Below the pieces are notes generated by a model. It had not been told where the DNA came from. It made no database searches and saw only the letters and a list, made by a program, of their open reading frames with translations. From assembly GCF_988243305.1 (NCBI RefSeq), contig NZ_OZ547136.1: a stretch of 64,000 nt of DNA. One strand, written 5' to 3'. Below are positions 10,147 to 17,459 of the stretch, in pieces (the first letter of the stretch is position 1; each line of letters begins with the position of its first letter). The translations under genes and the position numbers were made by a program.

Positions 10147-10418
10147 GTATTCGTATTGAAATTGGCGAACGTTATGTCGTTACCAGTGACAGCTTTCAGT
10201 TTATTCTCCACGAGAAAAAGAGAGCGGAAAGCGGTAAAAACGCCGGTCAGGAATGGCTGGCGGTGGTTGGTTATTACCCGAAATTAGGCCAGCTCGTTTC
10301 CGGCCTGATGCATCACGATATTCTGACCGGAAGCGCAAAATCTTTTGCTGATTTAAACGCGCAGGTTGAGCAACTCAGCAAGCGTTGTTCAGAGGCTTTT
10401 GGCTCATATGGCCGTTAA
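10143..10418 (+). CDS. Hypothetical early protein
   Basis: 91-aa ORF overlapping gene A start. Confidence 0.45.
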   Translation: MSIRIEIGERYVVTSDSFQFILHEKKRAESGKNAGQEWLAVVGYYPKLGQLVSGLMHHDILTGSAKSFADLNAQVEQLSKRCSEAFGSYGR

Positions 10419-12684
10419 AGCCTCCGGGCGTTTTGTCCCTCCGTCAGCATTTACCGCAGGCACCGGTAAGGCGTTTACCGGTGCTTATGCATGGAACGCG
10501 CCACGCGAGGATGTCGGGCGCGAAAGACCTCTTACACGTGACGAGATGCGTCAGGTGCAAGGTGTTTTATCCACGATTAACCGCCTGCCTTACTTTTTGC
10601 GCTCGCTGTTTACTTCACGCTATGACTACATCCGGCGCAATAAAAGCCCGGTGCACGGGTTTTATTTCCTCACATCTACTTTTCAGCGTCGTTTATGGCC
10701 GCGCATTGAGCGTGTGAATCAGCGCCATGAAATGAACACCGACGCGTCGTTGCTGTTTCTGGCAGAGCGTGACCACTATGCGCGCCTGCCGGGAATGAAT
10801 GACAAGGAGCTGAAAAAGTTTGCCGCCCGTATCTCATCGCAGCTTTTCATGATGTATGAGGAACTCTGCGATGCATGGGTTGATGCGCATGGTGAAAAAG
10901 AATCGCTGTTTACGGATGAGGCGCAGGCTCACCTGTATGGTCATGTTGCTGGCGCTGCACGTGCTTTCAATATTTCCCCGCTCTACTGGAAAAAATACCG
11001 TAAAGGACAGATGACCACGAGGCAGGCATATTCTGCCATTGCCCGCCTGTTTAACGATGAGTGGTGGATTCATCAGCTTAAAGGCCAGCGTATGCGCTGG
11101 CATGAGGCGTTACTGATAGCTGTCGGGGAGGTCAATAAAGACCGTTCTCCTTATGCCAGTAAACACGCCATTCGTGATGTGCGTGCGCGCCGCCAGGCAA
11201 ATCTGGAATTTCTTAAATCGTGTGACCTTGAAAACAGGGAAACCGGCGAGCGCATCGACCTTATCAGTAAGGTGATGGGCAGTATTTCTAATCCTGAAAT
11301 TCGCCGGATGGAGCTGATGAACACCATTGCCGGTATTGAGCGTTACGCCGCCGCAGAGGGTGATGTGGGGATGTTTATCACGCTGACCGCGCCGTCAAAG
11401 TATCACCCGACACGTCAGGTCGGAAAAGGCGAAAGTAAAACCGTTCAGCTTAATCACGGCTGGAACGATGAGGCATTTAATCCAAAGGATGCGCAGCGTT
11501 ATCTCTGCCGTATCTGGAGCCTGATGCGCACGGCATTCAAGGATAATGATTTACAGGTCTACGGTTTGCGAGTCGTCGAGCCACACCACGACGGAACGCC
11601 GCACTGGCATATGATGCTTTTTTGTCATCCACGCCAGCGTAACCAGATTATCGAAATCATGCGTCGCTATGCGCTCAAAGAGGATGGCGACGAAAGAGGA
11701 GCCGCGCGAAACCGTTTTCAGGCAAAACACCTTAACCGGGGCGGTGCTGCGGGATATATCGCGAAATACATTTCAAAAAACATCGACGGCTATGCACTGG
11801 ATGGTCAGCTCGATAACGACACCGGCAGGCCGCTGAAAGACACTGCAGCGGCTGTTACCGCATGGGCGTCAACGTGGCGCATTCCGCAATTTAAAACGGT
11901 TGGCCTGCCGACAATGGGGGCTTACCGTGAACTACGCAAATTGCCTCGCGGCGTCAGCATTGCTGATGAGTTTGACGAGCGCGTCGAGGCTGCACGCGCC
12001 GCCGCAGACGGTGGTGATTTTGCGCTGTATATCAGCGCGCAGGGCGGGGCAAATGTCCCGCGCGATTGTCAGACTGTCAGGGTCGCCCGTAGTCTGTCGG
12101 ATGACGTTAACGAGTACGAGGAAGAAGTCGAGAGAGTGGTCGGCATTTACGCGCCGCATCTCGGCGCGCGTCATATTCATATCACCAGAACGACGGACTG
12201 GCGCATTGTGCCGAAAGTTCCGGTCGTTGAGCCTTTGACTTTAAAAAGCGGCATCGCCGCGCCTCGGAGTCCTGTCAATAACTGTGGAAAGCTCACCGGT
12301 GGTGATACTTCGTTACCGGCTCCCACACCTTCTGAGCACGCCGCAGCAGTGCTTAATCTGGTTGATGACGATGTTATCGAATGGAATGACCCGGAGGTCG
12401 TGAGGGCGCTCAGGGGCGCATTAAAACACGACCGGAGAACGCCAAACCGTCAGCAAAGAAACGGAAGCCCGTTAAAACCGCATGAAATTGCACCATCGGC
12501 CAGACTGACCCGGTCGGAACGATTGCAAATTACCCGTATCCGCGTTGATCTCGCTCAGAACGGTATCAGGCCGCAACGATGGGAGCTTGAGGCGCTGGCG
12601 CGTGGCGCGACCGTAAATTATGACGGGAAACCTTTCACTTATCAGGTCGCTGATGATTGGCCGGGATTTTTGTTACCCATTTGA
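10408..12684 (+). CDS. P2 gpA-type rolling-circle replication initiator endonuclease
   Basis: ~758 aa from ATG 10408 (ORF-track frame opens 10366); HxH and tyrosine-containing motifs (PHHDGTPHWHMMLF, AGYIAKYISKN). Confidence 0.85.
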   Translation: MAVKASGRFVPPSAFTAGTGKAFTGAYAWNAPREDVGRERPLTRDEMRQVQGVLSTINRLPYFLRSLFTSRYDYIRRNKSPVHGFYFLTSTFQRRLWPRIERVNQRHEMNTDASLLFLAERDHYARLPGMNDKELKKFAARISSQLFMMYEELCDAWVDAHGEKESLFTDEAQAHLYGHVAGAARAFNISPLYWKKYRKGQMTTRQAYSAIARLFNDEWWIHQLKGQRMRWHEALLIAVGEVNKDRSPYASKHAIRDVRARRQANLEFLKSCDLENRETGERIDLISKVMGSISNPEIRRMELMNTIAGIERYAAAEGDVGMFITLTAPSKYHPTRQVGKGESKTVQLNHGWNDEAFNPKDAQRYLCRIWSLMRTAFKDNDLQVYGLRVVEPHHDGTPHWHMMLFCHPRQRNQIIEIMRRYALKEDGDERGAARNRFQAKHLNRGGAAGYIAKYISKNIDGYALDGQLDNDTGRPLKDTAAAVTAWASTWRIPQFKTVGLPTMGAYRELRKLPRGVSIADEFDERVEAARAAADGGDFALYISAQGGANVPRDCQTVRVARSLSDDVNEYEEEVERVVGIYAPHLGARHIHITRTTDWRIVPKVPVVEPLTLKSGIAAPRSPVNNCGKLTGGDTSLPAPTPSEHAAAVLNLVDDDVIEWNDPEVVRALRGALKHDRRTPNRQQRNGSPLKPHEIAPSARLTRSERLQITRIRVDLAQNGIRPQRWELEALARGATVNYDGKPFTYQVADDWPGFLLPI

Positions 12685-12942
12685 GTAAAAATACAGCGTG
12701 ATTTTATATGTCTTTGAATGGATTATGCGAAACACCTCTAAGGTAGATGAGGAGCAATAGCGTGTTGAATCAGAAGGCTAAATTGTATTGAATCGTTAGC
12801 ATGTAATTGAAGGCAGCTATTTGATTCGAGTCATAAAAGAGCATCTATTTCGGTTAATAAAACCATTGCGAGTGACTTTATGTCGAAGCATAATTCATCT
12901 CGAGCGAAGTCTTGCTAGTCTTTCATCGGATTGATGACGGGC

Positions 12943-12975
12943 GCAAAAAAACCACCCTGGCAGGTGGTTTTTTTG
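12943..12975. terminator. Bidirectional rho-independent terminator
   Basis: A-run, accacc-ctggca-ggtggt hairpin, T-run. Confidence 0.5.
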
Positions 12976-12986
12976 TTTGAAGCATA

Positions 12987-13100
12987 CTAAAGAAAAATAC
13001 TTACATGGATATTACTGACGTTTACTGACAAACCACTCGGACTACCATATGGATAGCCAAAGAGGGCCAGAACGAGAATGCAGTAATAGCACTTCTTCAT
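12987..13100 (-). CDS. Hypothetical 37-aa hydrophobic peptide (MKKCYYCILVLALFGYPYGSPSGLSVNVSNIHVSIFL)
   Basis: ATG with AGGAGG 5-10 nt upstream; terminator immediately downstream on the same strand. Confidence 0.3.
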   Translation of the reverse strand: MKKCYYCILVLALFGYPYGSPSGLSVNVSNIHVSIFL

Positions 13101-13822
13101 ATCGCCTCCTGTAAGCAGAGGGCAATTTCCGCCGATATATGCGCTTCTAAGGCGGAGTGACTATTGAGCGAAGTCTTGCCCTGAAATAATGCTCTGTTTA
13201 AACGCAAAGTGATCTGGCATATCACCGAACAGAGGACCTGAACAACACAACATATAGTATGTCGTTGTTTCTGGTTGCATTTTATGTTGTGTAATACTGG
13301 TTTTGCATCAAGGATGTTTGAGCTTTTTTTGATATAGCTCAAAGTAAAAAGCAGAGACTACGGATGATAAGGTCTTGAAAGCAATGTAAATTTTTTAAAG
13401 TTGTGAGTGGCTAGAAATGCACAGTTTCAATATGGCGGATTTAAACAAGTAATTAAAAATAGCGACACAAATTCCAATAAAATCATTAAGTTGCGTTTTC
13501 TGTGGAAACTTCGGTGACTCTGAAATTTTCTTTTAGTATCGCTGAGGTTTAACAACTCGCTGCGCAAGTAGTTAGTGTTTTTTTTAACTCAATATTCTGA
13601 TTTATAAGGTTTTTTATAAATCGTGGGCTGGTTGCGCATATTCATCTCGTGTTATCAGCAAAGATAAGCTCTATATGCAGAACTGAATGCATATATGATG
13701 TCGAAAATGTTATGGGAAAACGTGGATTAGTGTTATAGTAATGGCTGAAAAACAGCCTTGACATAAAATAACAACTGTGATATGGCTGTGCATACTTAAC
13801 TTTTTTAACGTAGGAGGCAACC

Positions 13823-14308
13823 ATGAGCTATGCAGCTAAAAAACTGCTTGACCGCTATTGGGATCGCCGACTACCTGTCGATCCGTTTAAGCTTGCTAAA
13901 GCGTGGGGTGCTCGTGTTGAAGCACTTGAGGAATCGGCTTATAACAACGATGGGTTAAGCGGTCTGGCTGTCATCAAAAAGGGTGTCCATAGGATTTATT
14001 TTGATTCTAGTGAACATTCTAATCGTCAACGTTTTACTGTTGCACACGAGTTAGGTCATCATGTGCTGGGGCATACCCAGGACGGAGAGTACCATCGGGA
14101 TAATGTCGGGAATTATTCAACAGGTGCTCGTGATTACCGTGAGGTTGAAGCAAACAAGTTTGCTGCTGAGTTGTTAATGCCTGAGTCTGCTATACGTCAA
14201 TTGGTATCCAGAGAAGGTATTGATAGCACTTTGAGATTAGCAAGCATCTTTAATGTATCAGAAGCCGCTATGCATTGGCGCTTAAAGAGCTTAGGAATGG
14301 CTTATTAA
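13823..14308 (+). CDS. ImmA/IrrE-family HEXXH zinc metallopeptidase-like protein (161 aa)
   Basis: HELGHHVLGH plus downstream E (FAAELLMPE); AGGAGG SD; promoter-like TTGACA at 13761; AT-rich cargo. Confidence 0.75.
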   Translation: MSYAAKKLLDRYWDRRLPVDPFKLAKAWGARVEALEESAYNNDGLSGLAVIKKGVHRIYFDSSEHSNRQRFTVAHELGHHVLGHTQDGEYHRDNVGNYSTGARDYREVEANKFAAELLMPESAIRQLVSREGIDSTLRLASIFNVSEAAMHWRLKSLGMAY

Positions 14309-14374
14309 TTAGCCTTTAACTTTTAACCTGTTTAAAATCACCTTTACGTTTGTACATGTAAGGGTGATTTTTTT

Positions 14375-14974
14375 ATGGCTGATATTGATTTATCTGGACA
14401 GTCCCCAGAGCAAGGAACCACTCCTAAGGGCGATTTAGATCCTGATATCCTTATAAGGCGAGATAGACGGGATGGTATAGAGCGTAGAAGTATGCGATTA
14501 GTGCTCTCTGCCGTTGTGCTTTGTTTTGCTTGTACATTTCTATGGCAGGGGCTTAACTTTGCTTTGGCTGTTGGAAATGGCTTGCTGGAAGCGAAAAGCA
14601 GTATTGCCGCAGCGATAACACAAAAAGTAGATACACAAACTTGTGTTTCAGCAGAAAAATGTTCTGCTTTATCTTCGGATCCGAAGATGGCTGATGAGAG
14701 GATAACACCATCTTCAGACACTAATAAAGTTAGAAAATCTATTTCTGGTTTATCCACCGATTGGTTATCGGCCAGTTCTCTAATAGCTATTGTTGCATTC
14801 ATCCTTGGTGTGGGTTTAACTTTGCTTTTGACTCTTCTTAAATCAGCATTTCAACACCCGACAGATAAAGACTTTAGAACAAAGTCGACATCTAATACTA
14901 TTGAGTTGGCCACGCCAATCAGTGAATTAATAATTGGTGTTCTGAATATAATTAAAGACAAACTATCTAAGTAA
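14375..14974 (+). CDS. Hypothetical membrane protein, two predicted TM helices (199 aa)
   Basis: Hydrophobic segments ~res 40-66 and 130-155; start codon sits in T-run of upstream terminator hairpin. Confidence 0.6.
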   Translation: MADIDLSGQSPEQGTTPKGDLDPDILIRRDRRDGIERRSMRLVLSAVVLCFACTFLWQGLNFALAVGNGLLEAKSSIAAAITQKVDTQTCVSAEKCSALSSDPKMADERITPSSDTNKVRKSISGLSTDWLSASSLIAIVAFILGVGLTLLLTLLKSAFQHPTDKDFRTKSTSNTIELATPISELIIGVLNIIKDKLSK

Positions 14975-15056
14975 AGCATTAGTTGTGATTTTTTATTGGT
15001 TTTAGTGATAATACATCTCCAGTACTTATTGTTACTGGAGAGTATTTTTAGTCGTT

Positions 15057-15998
15057 TTATATTTTTAATGTTAGTGAATGATATTCACGAGAGTTCACGT
15101 TCGATGTGATGTAATCGGGGGCGTTAACACCAAGAATCGCAACGAGTAATCGGCAAATTAAAGCCTGCATTTGTTGTAATATGTCATCTCCATATTGATA
15201 ATTGTTAATAGTGGTAAAGCCAAGTGGTTGACCATGAAACATAGCTTCATGAAAGTTTTCATTGCGGATGTTTGTAATGTTTTTTTTACCTGTAACCCAT
15301 GATGGTCGTGGTATTCCATAAGTTTTGCAGATCCACTTCAAGCGCCTGGAGTGATTTAGAGTCTTTTCTGTACACTTGTTCTTTTCTGCCCATGTTAAAG
15401 CAAAGCAACTATCCAGTGCCATATAAAGATACTGGAATTTTTCGAAGCTAAGGTATTGTGGGTTTTGGGATAAAAATAGTGCATGCACTATTGCTGCTAT
15501 ATTTATTGGTGCGTGTTTGGTTTTTGTCTCGCTAGACATGTATTTGAGTGCTAATTCTATAACCTCTTTTTCAGAGCACTTGACCAGAATAAAGTCAGTT
15601 AATTTGCTGGGTTTTATTGGGGTTGCGTCTAAAAAACCGGCATCAGTAGTTGTTAATCTTATCCCTTTGAAAAAAGACAGACACCACACAGCAAAATTGA
15701 GAGTTTCTAGTGAAGATGTATTTTTTAATTTTAGTGAGTGTGTTTTGGGTAAGCCAAATACTCGTTGGCTAAAAGGCATTGTGGATATGCCTCCATTGAG
15801 GTTATATACTTCTTGGTTTCCTGGGTATATCCAACCGTTAATAACATTTCTGTGATTGTTTATAAGATTTGTTTTTTCCGCTAGACCGGGTAAAGTAAGT
15901 AAAGAAAAATCATCAGTTTCAACGTTAACTTCTACTGGATAGTATCCAAACTCAGCTTCAATATCATTGGATTGCTGTTCGTCAACTTTACCTTGCAT
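15057..15998 (-). CDS. Hypothetical protein, 313 aa, unknown function (candidate phage-exclusion effector)
   Basis: Long ORF in AT-rich DNA (sampled lines roughly 35-40% GC vs >50% flanks), GGAG SD, convergent with membrane-protein gene; R-x4-H at ~245-250. Confidence 0.65.
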   Translation of the reverse strand: MQGKVDEQQSNDIEAEFGYYPVEVNVETDDFSLLTLPGLAEKTNLINNHRNVINGWIYPGNQEVYNLNGGISTMPFSQRVFGLPKTHSLKLKNTSSLETLNFAVWCLSFFKGIRLTTTDAGFLDATPIKPSKLTDFILVKCSEKEVIELALKYMSSETKTKHAPINIAAIVHALFLSQNPQYLSFEKFQYLYMALDSCFALTWAEKNKCTEKTLNHSRRLKWICKTYGIPRPSWVTGKKNITNIRNENFHEAMFHGQPLGFTTINNYQYGDDILQQMQALICRLLVAILGVNAPDYITSNVNSREYHSLTLKI

Positions 15999-16424: not shown

Positions 16425-17459
16425 TCAGCCGTTGTCGGTGTCCAGTGAGTAGTTTTTAAAGCGGATGACCTCCTGACCGAGCCAGCCGTTTATCTCGCGG
16501 ATCCTGTCCTGTAACGGGATAAGCTCATTGCGGACAAAGACCTTTGCCACTTTCTCAATATCACCCAGCGACCCGACGTTCTCCGGCTTGCCGCCCATCA
16601 ACTGAAAAGGGATGCGGTGCGCGTCCAGCAGGTCTGCGGCGCTGGCTTTTTTGATATTAAAAAAATCGTCCTTCGTTGCCACTTCACTGAGCGGGATAAT
16701 TTTAATGCCGTCGGCTTTCCCTTGCGGGGCATAGAGAAACAGATTTTTAAAGTTGTTGCGGCCTTTCGACTTCACCATGTTTTCGCGGAGCATTTCGATA
16801 TCGTTGCGATCCTGCACGGCATCAGTGACGTACATGATGTATCCGGCATGTGCGCCGTTTTCGTAATACTTGCGGCGGAACAGCGTGGCCGACTCATTCA
16901 GCCAGGCAGAGTTAAGGGCGCTGAGATATTCCGGCAGGCCATACAGCTCCTGATTAATATCCGGCTCCAGCAGGTGAAACACGGAGCCGGGCGCGAAAGG
17001 TGTCGGCTCATGGAAGGACGGCACCCACCAGTAAACATCCTCTTCCACGCCACGGCGGGTATATTTTGCCGGTGAGGTTTCCAGTCTGATGACCTTACCG
17101 GTGGTGCTGTAACGCTTTTCCAGAAACGCATTACCGAACACCAGAAAATCCAGCACAAAGCGGCTGAAATCCTGCTGGGAAAGCCACGGGTGCGGAATAA
17201 ACGTTGAAGCCAGAATATTACGTTTGACGTAAATCGGTGAGCTGTGATGTACGGCAGCACGCAGGCTTTTTGCCAGACCGGTAAAGCTGACCGGTGGCTC
17301 ATACCATCTGCCGTTACTGATGCACTCGACGTAATCCAGAATGTCACGGCGGTCGAGTACCGGCACCGGTTCACCAAAGGTGAATGCCTCCATTTTCGGG
17401 GCGCTGGCGGTCATTTTTTTTGCCGCAGGTTGCGGTGTTTTCCCTTTTTTCTTGCTCAT
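16425..17459 (-). CDS. Portal protein (P2 gpQ)
   Basis: 344 aa, P2 order and size. Confidence 0.9.
   Translation of the reverse strand: MSKKKGKTPQPAAKKMTASAPKMEAFTFGEPVPVLDRRDILDYVECISNGRWYEPPVSFTGLAKSLRAAVHHSSPIYVKRNILASTFIPHPWLSQQDFSRFVLDFLVFGNAFLEKRYSTTGKVIRLETSPAKYTRRGVEEDVYWWVPSFHEPTPFAPGSVFHLLEPDINQELYGLPEYLSALNSAWLNESATLFRRKYYENGAHAGYIMYVTDAVQDRNDIEMLRENMVKSKGRNNFKNLFLYAPQGKADGIKIIPLSEVATKDDFFNIKKASAADLLDAHRIPFQLMGGKPENVGSLGDIEKVAKVFVRNELIPLQDRIREINGWLGQEVIRFKNYSLDTDNG

Follow-up and report, generated by a model that had tools for sequence, protein, structure and literature searches.

Between gene A and a peptidase gene of the P2-like prophage that is the content of our window (the whole 64-kb stretch of DNA analysed, from contig NZ_OZ547136.1 of assembly GCF_988243305.1), positions 12685-13822 hold a self-contained mobile cassette, 12821-13398, that probably works like a par/Fst-RNA II type I toxin-antitoxin locus. 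In the mechanism we propose, a minus-strand promoter homologous to that of host nrdDG would make an mRNA of ~330 nucleotides (nt), expected under anaerobiosis and lifted NrdR repression, with a 172-nt structured leader, a mostly sequestered Shine-Dalgarno sequence (SD) and the coding sequence of a 37-residue peptide with a hydrophobic N-terminal helix. On the plus strand, a sigma-70 promoter would make a ~75-nt small RNA (sRNA), and both RNAs would converge on one bidirectional terminator. Base pairing between the first 14-18 nt of the sRNA and a leader segment 66-79 nt upstream of the start codon would keep the peptide from being translated, until loss of the sRNA or a surge of mRNA allowed it to be made; standby-site block, RNase III cleavage and a structural switch are candidate routes. 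Our comparisons establish that all elements are conserved, that the peptide gene evolves as coding sequence, that the RNAs are structured and that the two repeat copies co-vary; that both RNAs are made, that their pairing represses, that FNR and NrdR act on the promoter and that the peptide is toxic or membrane-active are inferences.

A sequence-only reading of this DNA had presented it as 1.1 kb of non-coding sequence with organised signals. As it stated, no substantial open reading frame (ORF) lies between gene A (end 12684) and the ImmA/IrrE peptidase gene (start 13823): the longest has 81 amino acids (aa), and indels break the longer ORFs of the stretch in relatives. The description as non-coding proved too coarse, since the stretch contains a real small gene and is a three-part mosaic of which only 12821-13398 is the unit. 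The 14-mer that it had noticed twice is present as two exact copies, its 37-aa minus-strand ORF does have an AGGAGG SD, and its strong hairpin terminator has fully complementary 13-nt arms and is bidirectional; the further hairpins are there too, some with compensatory changes. The comparison across prophages for which it called found the motif and the small ORF conserved and the repeat copies co-varying, and the Rfam/covariance scan that it suggested gave nothing above threshold. The homology to the nrdDG promoter was absent from it. The features of the cassette are as follows.

12821..13398, no single strand: mobile cassette, ~575 bp, delimited by blastn against non-P2 loci and by nrdD-promoter homology
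12821..12834, plus: TTGAT-N4-GTCAT, outermost conserved element, at the same place in 7-8 of 10 aligned lineages
12866..12894, plus: predicted sRNA promoter (TTGCGA, 17-nt spacer, CATAAT), one of two sigma-70-like sites in the scan
12902..12978, plus: predicted ~75-nt sRNA (5' seed, variable hairpin, terminator hairpin), its ends deduced from promoter and terminator
12902..12915, plus: repeat copy 1, GAGCGAAGUCUUGC, putative sRNA 5' seed, an exact repeat complementary to minus-strand leader 13179..13166
12944..12975, no single strand: bidirectional intrinsic terminator common to the sRNA (plus) and the peptide mRNA (minus), arms 12944-12956 and 12963-12975
12987..13100, minus: 37-aa ORF, MKKCYYCILVLALFGYPYGSPSGLSVNVSNIHVSIFL, intact in 33/33 unique P2-type copies
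13105..13110, minus: Shine-Dalgarno AGGAGG, 4 nt ahead of the ATG, its GGAGG invariant in all lineages
13128..13156, minus: predicted leader helix UCCGCC/GGCGGA around the conserved loop AGAAGCGCAnAUA, 4/7 pairs changed on both sides
13166..13179, minus: repeat copy 2, GCAAGACUUCGCUC, putative sRNA target in the leader, 66-79 nt upstream of the ATG
13192..13234, minus: predicted leader hairpin 1 (outer stem CUCUGUU/AACAGAG, inner stem GUGAU/AUCAC, UGCCAG in the loop), paired in all 8 sequences
13245-13260, minus: NrdR-box-like 16-mer (second box), 2/16 mismatches, the sole match to ACACWATATATWGTGT with at most 2 mismatches in 64 kb
13277-13292, minus: NrdR-box-like 16-mer (partner), 4/16 mismatches by our own count, 16-bp linker
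13279-13284, minus: -10 hexamer TAAAAT, aligning with the nrdDG -10 at the same distance
13298-13311, minus: FNR-1, TTGATgcaaAACCA, aligning with the FNR site of the E. coli and Salmonella nrdDG promoters
13329-13342, minus: FNR-2, TTGAGctatATCAA, one mismatch to TTGAT-N4-ATCAA, aligning with the nrdDG FNR site
13302..13398, minus: homology to the treC-nrdD region (nrdDG promoter), ~85% over 97 nt by blastn

A Conserved Unit in a Mosaic Stretch

The stretch falls in the variable gpA-gpQ locus of P2 (the tin/old region), described as a hotspot for anti-phage cargo (PMC9122126), and GC content drops from ~0.55 in gene A to 0.34-0.44 across it. Among 5,426 complete E. coli genomes, 149 carry the stretch, and the site is annotated in none of them. 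Its first ~765 nt are shared at 86%-95% identity ahead of differing cargos, such as AAA-ATPase pairs or a 1-kb hypothetical gene. Positions 13450-13822 are kept only in prophages with the same ImmA/IrrE peptidase gene (L001, L008) and are replaced in others. Pairwise identity among the 33 unique P2-type copies is 0.93-0.997 over 12945-13264, 0.89-0.92 at the end of gene A and 0.83-0.88 over 12705-12864. By blastn of the window against eight non-P2 loci, the cassette extends from 12821 to 13393 at 67%-74% identity; the homology to the nrdD promoter reaches 13398. The stretch thus has three parts, first a P2-specific spacer, then the cassette and last a leader specific to the cargo, and by these alignments only 12821-13398 (~575 bp) is a conserved unit.

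A 37-Residue Peptide Gene under Purifying Selection

The ORF occurs in four protein variants among the 33 unique P2-type copies, and an exhaustive phmmer search retrieved relatives of 37-38 aa at 56%-59% identity. The most distant relative is a 39-aa ORF with 16% identity on a Salmonella plasmid. E. coli W encodes the peptide as ECW_m2278. In 10 lineages its start and stop are fixed at 37-39 aa, while the in-frame opening upstream varies from 3 to 61 codons. The variable alignment columns number 19, 14 and 32 of 38 at codon positions 1, 2 and 3, respectively, and the ratio of nonsynonymous to synonymous changes (pN/pS) is 0.26-0.47. Judged by these patterns, the 37-39-aa ORF is a real small gene under purifying selection. 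The consensus of the peptide reads M-[KN]-[KR]-x3-CILVL[AT]L[FI]GYP-x-G-S-Q-S-G-W-S-V-x-V-S-H-I-x-V-x-I-x-L, and an AlphaFold model has a helix at residues 3-15 only, with a predicted local distance difference test score (pLDDT) of 55.6, too low for a fold search.

Two other minus-strand ORFs, of 81 aa and 39 aa, were rejected as genes on account of a 2-nt indel, a lineage-specific TAG and an upstream frame that is not conserved. Fusion proteins of 88 and 97 aa found in databases are likewise gene-caller artefacts, as their upstream frame is unconserved and only the 37-aa part is kept. Such calls (region 13101-13280) arise where some lineages have lost the stop upstream of the 37-aa ORF (TAG, 13161-13163, minus strand). 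These fusion proteins serve as protein-cluster representatives in a large database, and a protein database search with the 88-aa fusion returned three near-identical clusters only.

The Repeat Pair and Predicted sRNA-Leader Pairing

The 14-mer GAGCGAAGTCTTGC occurs on the plus strand exactly twice, at 12902-12915 and 13166-13179, and each copy is preceded by a gapped and weaker extension, GAGTGACT (12870, 13155). By our own estimate the chance of one exact 14-mer pair in 1,138 nt is ~0.002, and without mismatches the 13-nt core of the repeat is found in the 64 kb at these two places only. Since the repeats are direct and the predicted RNAs come from opposite strands, the 5' end of the sRNA would be complementary to leader 13179..13166. 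The contiguous complementarity between sRNA and leader extends over 14 nt in the window, as compared with 15-18 nt in other lineages.

The two copies change together. The flank GTGAC stands at both copies in loci L041 and L053, and TGGC at both copies in L049, L051 and L057. In the Salmonella plasmid locus L058, both cores have GGTAAGGCTTTGCTCA where others have GGCAAGACTTCGCTCA, with two or three positions changed; its version of the seed is GAGCAAAGCCUUAC. Across ten lineages, a 17-pair intermolecular helix has 95.9% of cells paired and four pairs in which both partners changed. The observed values are matched by 1-5 of 500 shuffles, and a slid partner is 29%-39% paired. By this covariation, we take the repeat to mean RNA-RNA pairing.

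A second contact between the two RNAs may exist. The UGCCAG in the loop of hairpin 1 (~13212-13218) is the same as the terminator-loop hexamer of the mRNA (12957-12962), and both are complementary to the sRNA terminator loop CUGGCA. The sRNA terminator loop may thus make a kissing contact with the loop of hairpin 1, as in par; L049 changes the two loops differently.

The Predicted Convergent sRNA and the Shared Terminator

The putative sRNA promoter is found in all lineages, with both hexamers, a spacing of 17-18 nt and an upstream A/T-rich stretch retained and with unrelated spacer sequences. Copy 1 of the 14-mer begins 7 nt past the -10 hexamer and ends 28 nt ahead of the terminator. The predicted sRNA folds at -31.9 kcal/mol (z = -4.35). 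The sequence of its middle hairpin differs by lineage but stays paired: both partners have changed in 7/9 pairs, a result matched by 0-2 of 500 shuffles. The terminator arms, 13 nt each, are 100% complementary; an A-run precedes them and a T-run follows, and therefore the terminator can act in both directions. Its stem is identical in 9/9 lineages that reach it, with a single loop change in L049. The sRNA might also be released from the P2 early transcript, as the same sequence would lie in the 3' end of the gene A transcript. The Rfam scan of the stretch (E ≤ 1) gave only sub-threshold, terminator-driven matches (RNAI, Phe leader, P9, mir-644), the best being RNAI, whose 27.8 bits fall short of its gathering score of 47.

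At the outer edge of the cassette, ~74 nt upstream of the predicted sRNA start, TTGAT-N4-GTCAT may be a regulator site resembling a half-site of the FNR/CRP family, and as such would tie the sRNA to the signal of the mRNA.

A Promoter Homologous to That of nrdDG

A sensitive blastn search with 12860-13420 gave a match in 5,425 of the 5,426 E. coli genomes, confined to 13302-13398 of the window, at ~85% identity (E ~1e-21). Every such match is the treC-nrdD intergenic region, with the minus strand of the window running in the direction of nrdD. When aligned with nrdDG promoters, the cassette is homologous from ~-120 to the second NrdR box, where the homology ends; the two FNR sites, the -10 hexamer and the second of the NrdR boxes keep their order and orientation. 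By this alignment the cassette promoter, placed at 13279-13342 on the minus strand, is a homologue of the host nrdDG promoter, but one that would drive a 37-aa ORF on mobile elements rather than anaerobic ribonucleotide reductase.

We take the nrdDG FNR sites to lie at -33.5 and -64.5 and used these positions to place the start of the cassette mRNA. The predicted start is ~13271-13272, between the NrdR-like boxes, and therefore the leader would have 172 nt and the mRNA ~330 nt. The nrdDG promoter is activated anaerobically by FNR and repressed by NrdR, and its NrdR box 1 overlaps an FNR site (PMC2892513). By analogy, FNR and NrdR would act on the cassette promoter. The NrdR probe sequence appears in PMC12176259, which also documents this control of nrdDG. 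Relative to nrdDG, the NrdR boxes of the P2 lineage are displaced by about one helical turn. Plasmid and inovirus lineages retain the first NrdR box at its canonical place, and two of them, by our own reading, have the second box exactly 15 bp downstream.

The P2-type cassette promoter is closest to the E. coli nrdD promoter, and other types are closer to the Salmonella type. At FNR-2, the E. coli P2 type has TTGAGCTAyATCAA and the plasmid and inovirus types have the Salmonella-like TTGTTCTnnATCAA (compared with L039, E. coli K-12, and L056, Salmonella). This likeness by host could reflect either repeated exchange with the host copy or parallel divergence of cassette and host promoters.

A Structured Leader with a Shine-Dalgarno Sequence Predicted to Be Mostly Paired

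In eight lineages, RNAalifold and pair counts gave hairpin 1 and the helix at 13128-13156, 20 pairs in all, with 95.6% of cells paired and 7 compensatory pairs. None of 500 shuffles matches the observed values, and slid partners are 39%-46% paired. The outer stem of hairpin 1 exists in UU/AA, CC/GG and UC/GA versions, and its inner stem has an A-U to G-C change. On this comparative evidence, the leader is a structured RNA.

In each of the 8 lineages, the SD is mostly paired by prediction (probability of being unpaired, 0.1-0.27). Local anti-SD hairpins fold at -7 to -11 kcal/mol, and the pairing partners vary between predictions. A predicted long-range helix, of which four sequence versions occur, connects the 5' flank of the sRNA target with the strand immediately upstream of the SD; it has an energy of -11.6 kcal/mol within a sequence as compared with -8.0 kcal/mol across lineages.

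Relation to Known Systems

Par-like loci are defined by convergent promoters, a bidirectional terminator, oppositely read direct repeats and a structure that sequesters the SD (PMC7472228). The cassette shares with par/Fst-RNA II the convergent promoters at its ends, a single bidirectional terminator for the mRNA and a ~65-75-nt antisense RNA, an oppositely read direct repeat that gives 5' complementarity, and a location on mobile elements (PMC7472228); an SD held within an intramolecular structure may be a further likeness. It departs from par in several respects. It has one repeat pair in place of DRa and DRb; its target lies 66-79 nt upstream of the ATG and not over the translation initiation region; the promoter at the toxin position is copied from a host metabolic promoter; and its hosts are Enterobacteriaceae, where the related Ldr toxins have another regulatory layout. 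The signature of the Fst/Ldr superfamily comprises a transmembrane helix that contains a P/D/S/TxxxG motif and a conserved Trp followed by a highly charged C-terminal tail. Unlike Fst/Ldr, the cassette peptide has neither a charged C-terminal tail nor a PXXXG motif; Trp is found in some lineages only.

Among E. coli loci, tisB/istR-1, zorO/orzO, shoB/ohsC and dinQ/agrB resemble the cassette in their ~14-20-nt perfect complementarity, separate sRNA and long structured leader with pairing far from the SD; their mRNA is translationally inert, and the product is a small hydrophobic peptide, as in the cassette. They differ in being divergent pairs without a common terminator, mostly SOS-controlled or constitutive, and the cassette has no sequence similarity to them by NCBIfam or Rfam. 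The timP/timR (ryfA) locus of Salmonella and E. coli (PMC7667032) offers another parallel, with a 38-aa peptide, a signal-like N-terminus and repression by an sRNA that pairs with the 5' untranslated region; it differs in that timR is divergent and adjacent and the locus belongs to the core genome. Rfam RyfA (RF00126) has no match to the cassette, and the TimP and cassette peptides were not alignable by the searches run. We rejected membership in Fst/Ldr, Hok/Sok, Ldr/Rdl, Ibs/Sib, TisB, ShoB, ZorO, DinQ/DqlB and TimP, as no Pfam, NCBIfam or Rfam model matches.

Two general features of type I systems are present: a hydrophobic protein of <60 aa (37-39 aa in the 10 lineages, with the helix from a low-confidence model) and, in silico, a locus-encoded antisense sRNA predicted to be complementary to the mRNA. 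As for the setting, the cassette lies between gene A and defence-type cargo like the cargo described for the P2 gpA-gpQ hotspot (Rousset et al. 2022, PMC9122126), but unlike that cargo it is a constant module of ~8% of P2-type prophages.

Weighing the Explanations

The sequence-only reading had suggested, among other possibilities, a type I toxin-antitoxin-like arrangement. Comparison of the lineages supports such an architecture (a selected ORF, a conserved sRNA promoter, a shared terminator and co-varying complementarity); the peptide, a putative toxin, matches no known toxin family. We consider it likely that the type I toxin-antitoxin design is represented here by a new variant, one that is widespread and has pirated the nrdDG promoter.

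Several observations weigh against this interpretation. The hydrophobic stretch of the peptide, at only 13-16 residues, is atypical of type I toxins, and its C-terminal half (GLSVNVSNIHVSIFL) is serine-rich and has no charged residues. The peptide has no match in Pfam (E ≤ 10), NCBIfam (0 families, E ≤ 1), PHROGs or PADLOC. The complementarity in the P2 lineage, at 14 nt, is the shortest of all, and the NrdR box of that lineage is degenerate at the canonical position. The covariation rests on only four or five independent lineages, with a shuffle control that is uncorrected for relatedness, and the structures tested for it were derived from the same sequences. Blocking the seed target in silico caused no consistent change in SD accessibility. 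Given this inconsistent response, we do not claim a structural switch in which sRNA binding frees the strand that closes the SD.

The strongest competing account accepts the same cassette and makes its product something other than a toxin: a small, conditionally expressed peptide that is exported or sits in the membrane, has a signal-like N-terminus, cleaved or uncleaved, and acts in physiology or phage exclusion, and for which the sRNA would set a threshold of expression. The short, signal-peptide-like hydrophobic segment agrees with this, as do the alternation of polar and hydrophobic residues in a C-terminal half without a charged tail, the lack of a similar curated toxin family and the dedicated environmental promoter of the FNR/NrdR type. 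However, spread over plasmids, prophages and inoviruses, an SD predicted to be sequestered, a long structured leader and a linked antisense RNA together form the hallmark set of type I loci, and TimP is a precedent for a 38-aa signal-like peptide acting as a type I toxin (PMC7667032). We regard a non-toxin role as rather unlikely.

Another possibility, raised for the cargo genes by the sequence-only reading, is that the 14-mers are sites for a DNA-binding regulator of the cargo genes or of P2 early transcription, with no functional sRNA. Both copies are strongly conserved, and each is preceded by the gapped 8-mer. However, the cassette encodes no DNA-binding protein and moves among unrelated neighbours, the same cassette lying beside unrelated cargos and on plasmids and filamentous phages; the two copies have changed together, at three positions in L058 and in the flank in L041 and L053; and copy 1 sits exactly 7 nt past a conserved -10 and 28 nt ahead of the terminator. 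The proposal of regulator sites for the cargo genes is not supported by these comparisons, and in its wider form the explanation is very improbable. Least credible of all is that the stretch is decaying junk, old cargo remnants and captured host DNA conserved only because the prophages are young: it is an AT-rich unannotated region in a recombination hotspot, and one copy is disrupted by an insertion sequence (IS), but the comparative data already contradict this account, with a cassette core more conserved than the adjacent gene A end and flanks, 67%-74% nucleotide identity across replicons, an intact ORF, a predominance of third-position changes and compensatory changes in stems.

Distribution and Mobility

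The cassette is present in 150 of the 5,426 complete E. coli genomes, always after P2 gene A and beside differing cargos. P2-type gene A occurs at 1,915 places in 1,636 E. coli genomes, and ~8% of these prophages have the cassette. In Kluyvera georgiana ATCC 51603 (L042/L048) and in L041, it lies beside secretin, Zot, DUF2523, pV and pII genes of Ff-like filamentous prophages; in Citrobacter freundii (L049), on a contig with an IncFII RepA; and in L052, next to lpxP and an IS110. In PLSDB, it is found on 414-425 plasmids, 394 of them from Klebsiella and 351 conjugative, with the site unannotated in all. The most divergent copy is that of the Salmonella IncF plasmid pCFSAN058565 (L058). This range of replicons marks the cassette as a mobile unit.

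[quoted passage not shown] A double-motif scan of GTDB genomes produced four false positives, which are unrelated repeats in Bacteroidia, Treponema and Muribaculaceae bins and a Haloglomus chromosome, and two of five metagenome matches are likewise unrelated.

Some neighbourhoods deserve mention. In L058 (782-877), the cassette adjoins a gene for an Rpn-family recombination nuclease and has at ~2 kb a gene annotated as a DinQ-like type I toxin (dqlB). On Klebsiella plasmids, as in K. pneumoniae pGN-2 (L057, 6161-8508), a 3'-5' exonuclease gene lies ~1.6 kb away, and after it come genes of the Mov34/MPN and ThiF families, a set that resembles ubiquitin-like conjugation defence operons. In the decayed P2 prophage of E. 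coli CUPS TF 6/1_01 (L007, 5639-6847), the IS4-like ISVsa5 lies just past 13309, in the region of the FNR sites.

Implications

Annotators have passed over the module of gene plus sRNA in at least 150 complete E. coli genomes and on at least 414 plasmids, the majority of which are large, conjugative and clinically important plasmids of Klebsiella. The motif and peptide strings returned nothing relevant in the full-text literature searched; literature beyond the searched collection may differ. In the searched parts of the hotspot survey (PMC9122126), the words "intergenic", "non-coding" and "noncoding" do not occur, and its method took annotated genes only. For studies of P2 hotspots, protein-centred surveys overlook a constant module beside defence genes, one that is carried along in "native promoter" clones.

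If the cassette is a true type I system, the par/Fst design, hitherto described for Gram-positives, enters the Gram-negatives, and a new peptide family is added. The capture of the promoter, a reuse of the complete nrdDG control region, would mean that a mobile element wires its own small gene to host sensors of oxygen and deoxynucleotides, which is unusual and directly testable. More speculatively, the cassette could represent an unrecognised family of mobile kill-or-arrest switches in Enterobacteriaceae. FNR, when oxygen is lacking, and release of NrdR, when the dATP/ATP balance is disturbed as in replication stress or under phage attack, would license a membrane-active peptide that a par-type antisense RNA restrains, and P2-like phages, filamentous phages and large Klebsiella plasmids would have in it a module for addiction or abortive infection. 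We offer this extension tentatively, as a possibility of rather modest probability.

Flanking Sequences and Neighbouring Genes

The remaining features of the locus lie on either side of the cassette.

10366..12684, plus: gpA replication endonuclease (gene A), an ORF
12685..12820, plus: P2-lineage spacer after gene A, absent from plasmid and inovirus copies and more variable than the cassette core
13399..13822, plus: cargo-linked, AT-rich variable leader, linked to the peptidase gene
13758-13763 and 13778-13786, plus: predicted promoter of the peptidase gene (TTGACA and extended -10 TGaTATGGC, respectively), read from the sequence
13812-17, plus: SD of the ImmA/IrrE peptidase gene, read from the sequence
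16425..17459, minus: gpQ portal gene, located in the window

The spacer at 12685..12820 is presumably the 3' untranslated part of the early transcript. The hairpins at 13440-13830, compared in the two lineages available, are not significant on these data (fold z = -2.3). The cargo, 13823-15998, comprises three genes, for the ImmA/IrrE metallopeptidase, a 199-aa membrane protein (PHROG 8096) and a convergent 313-aa protein (PHROG 5937). The metallopeptidase matches the PADLOC CapP model (1.1e-30), without an adjoining helix-turn-helix partner, and the three genes are a candidate for an uncharacterised hotspot system.

Many E. coli chromosomes that RefSeq lists as "complete" open, at base 1, with gene A of the P2 prophage (L008, 1-2277; the match begins at 2278 in at least 10 of 30 listed records). 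Apparently, start-fixing software rotated these chromosomes after mistaking the phage replication endonuclease for a chromosomal replication gene.

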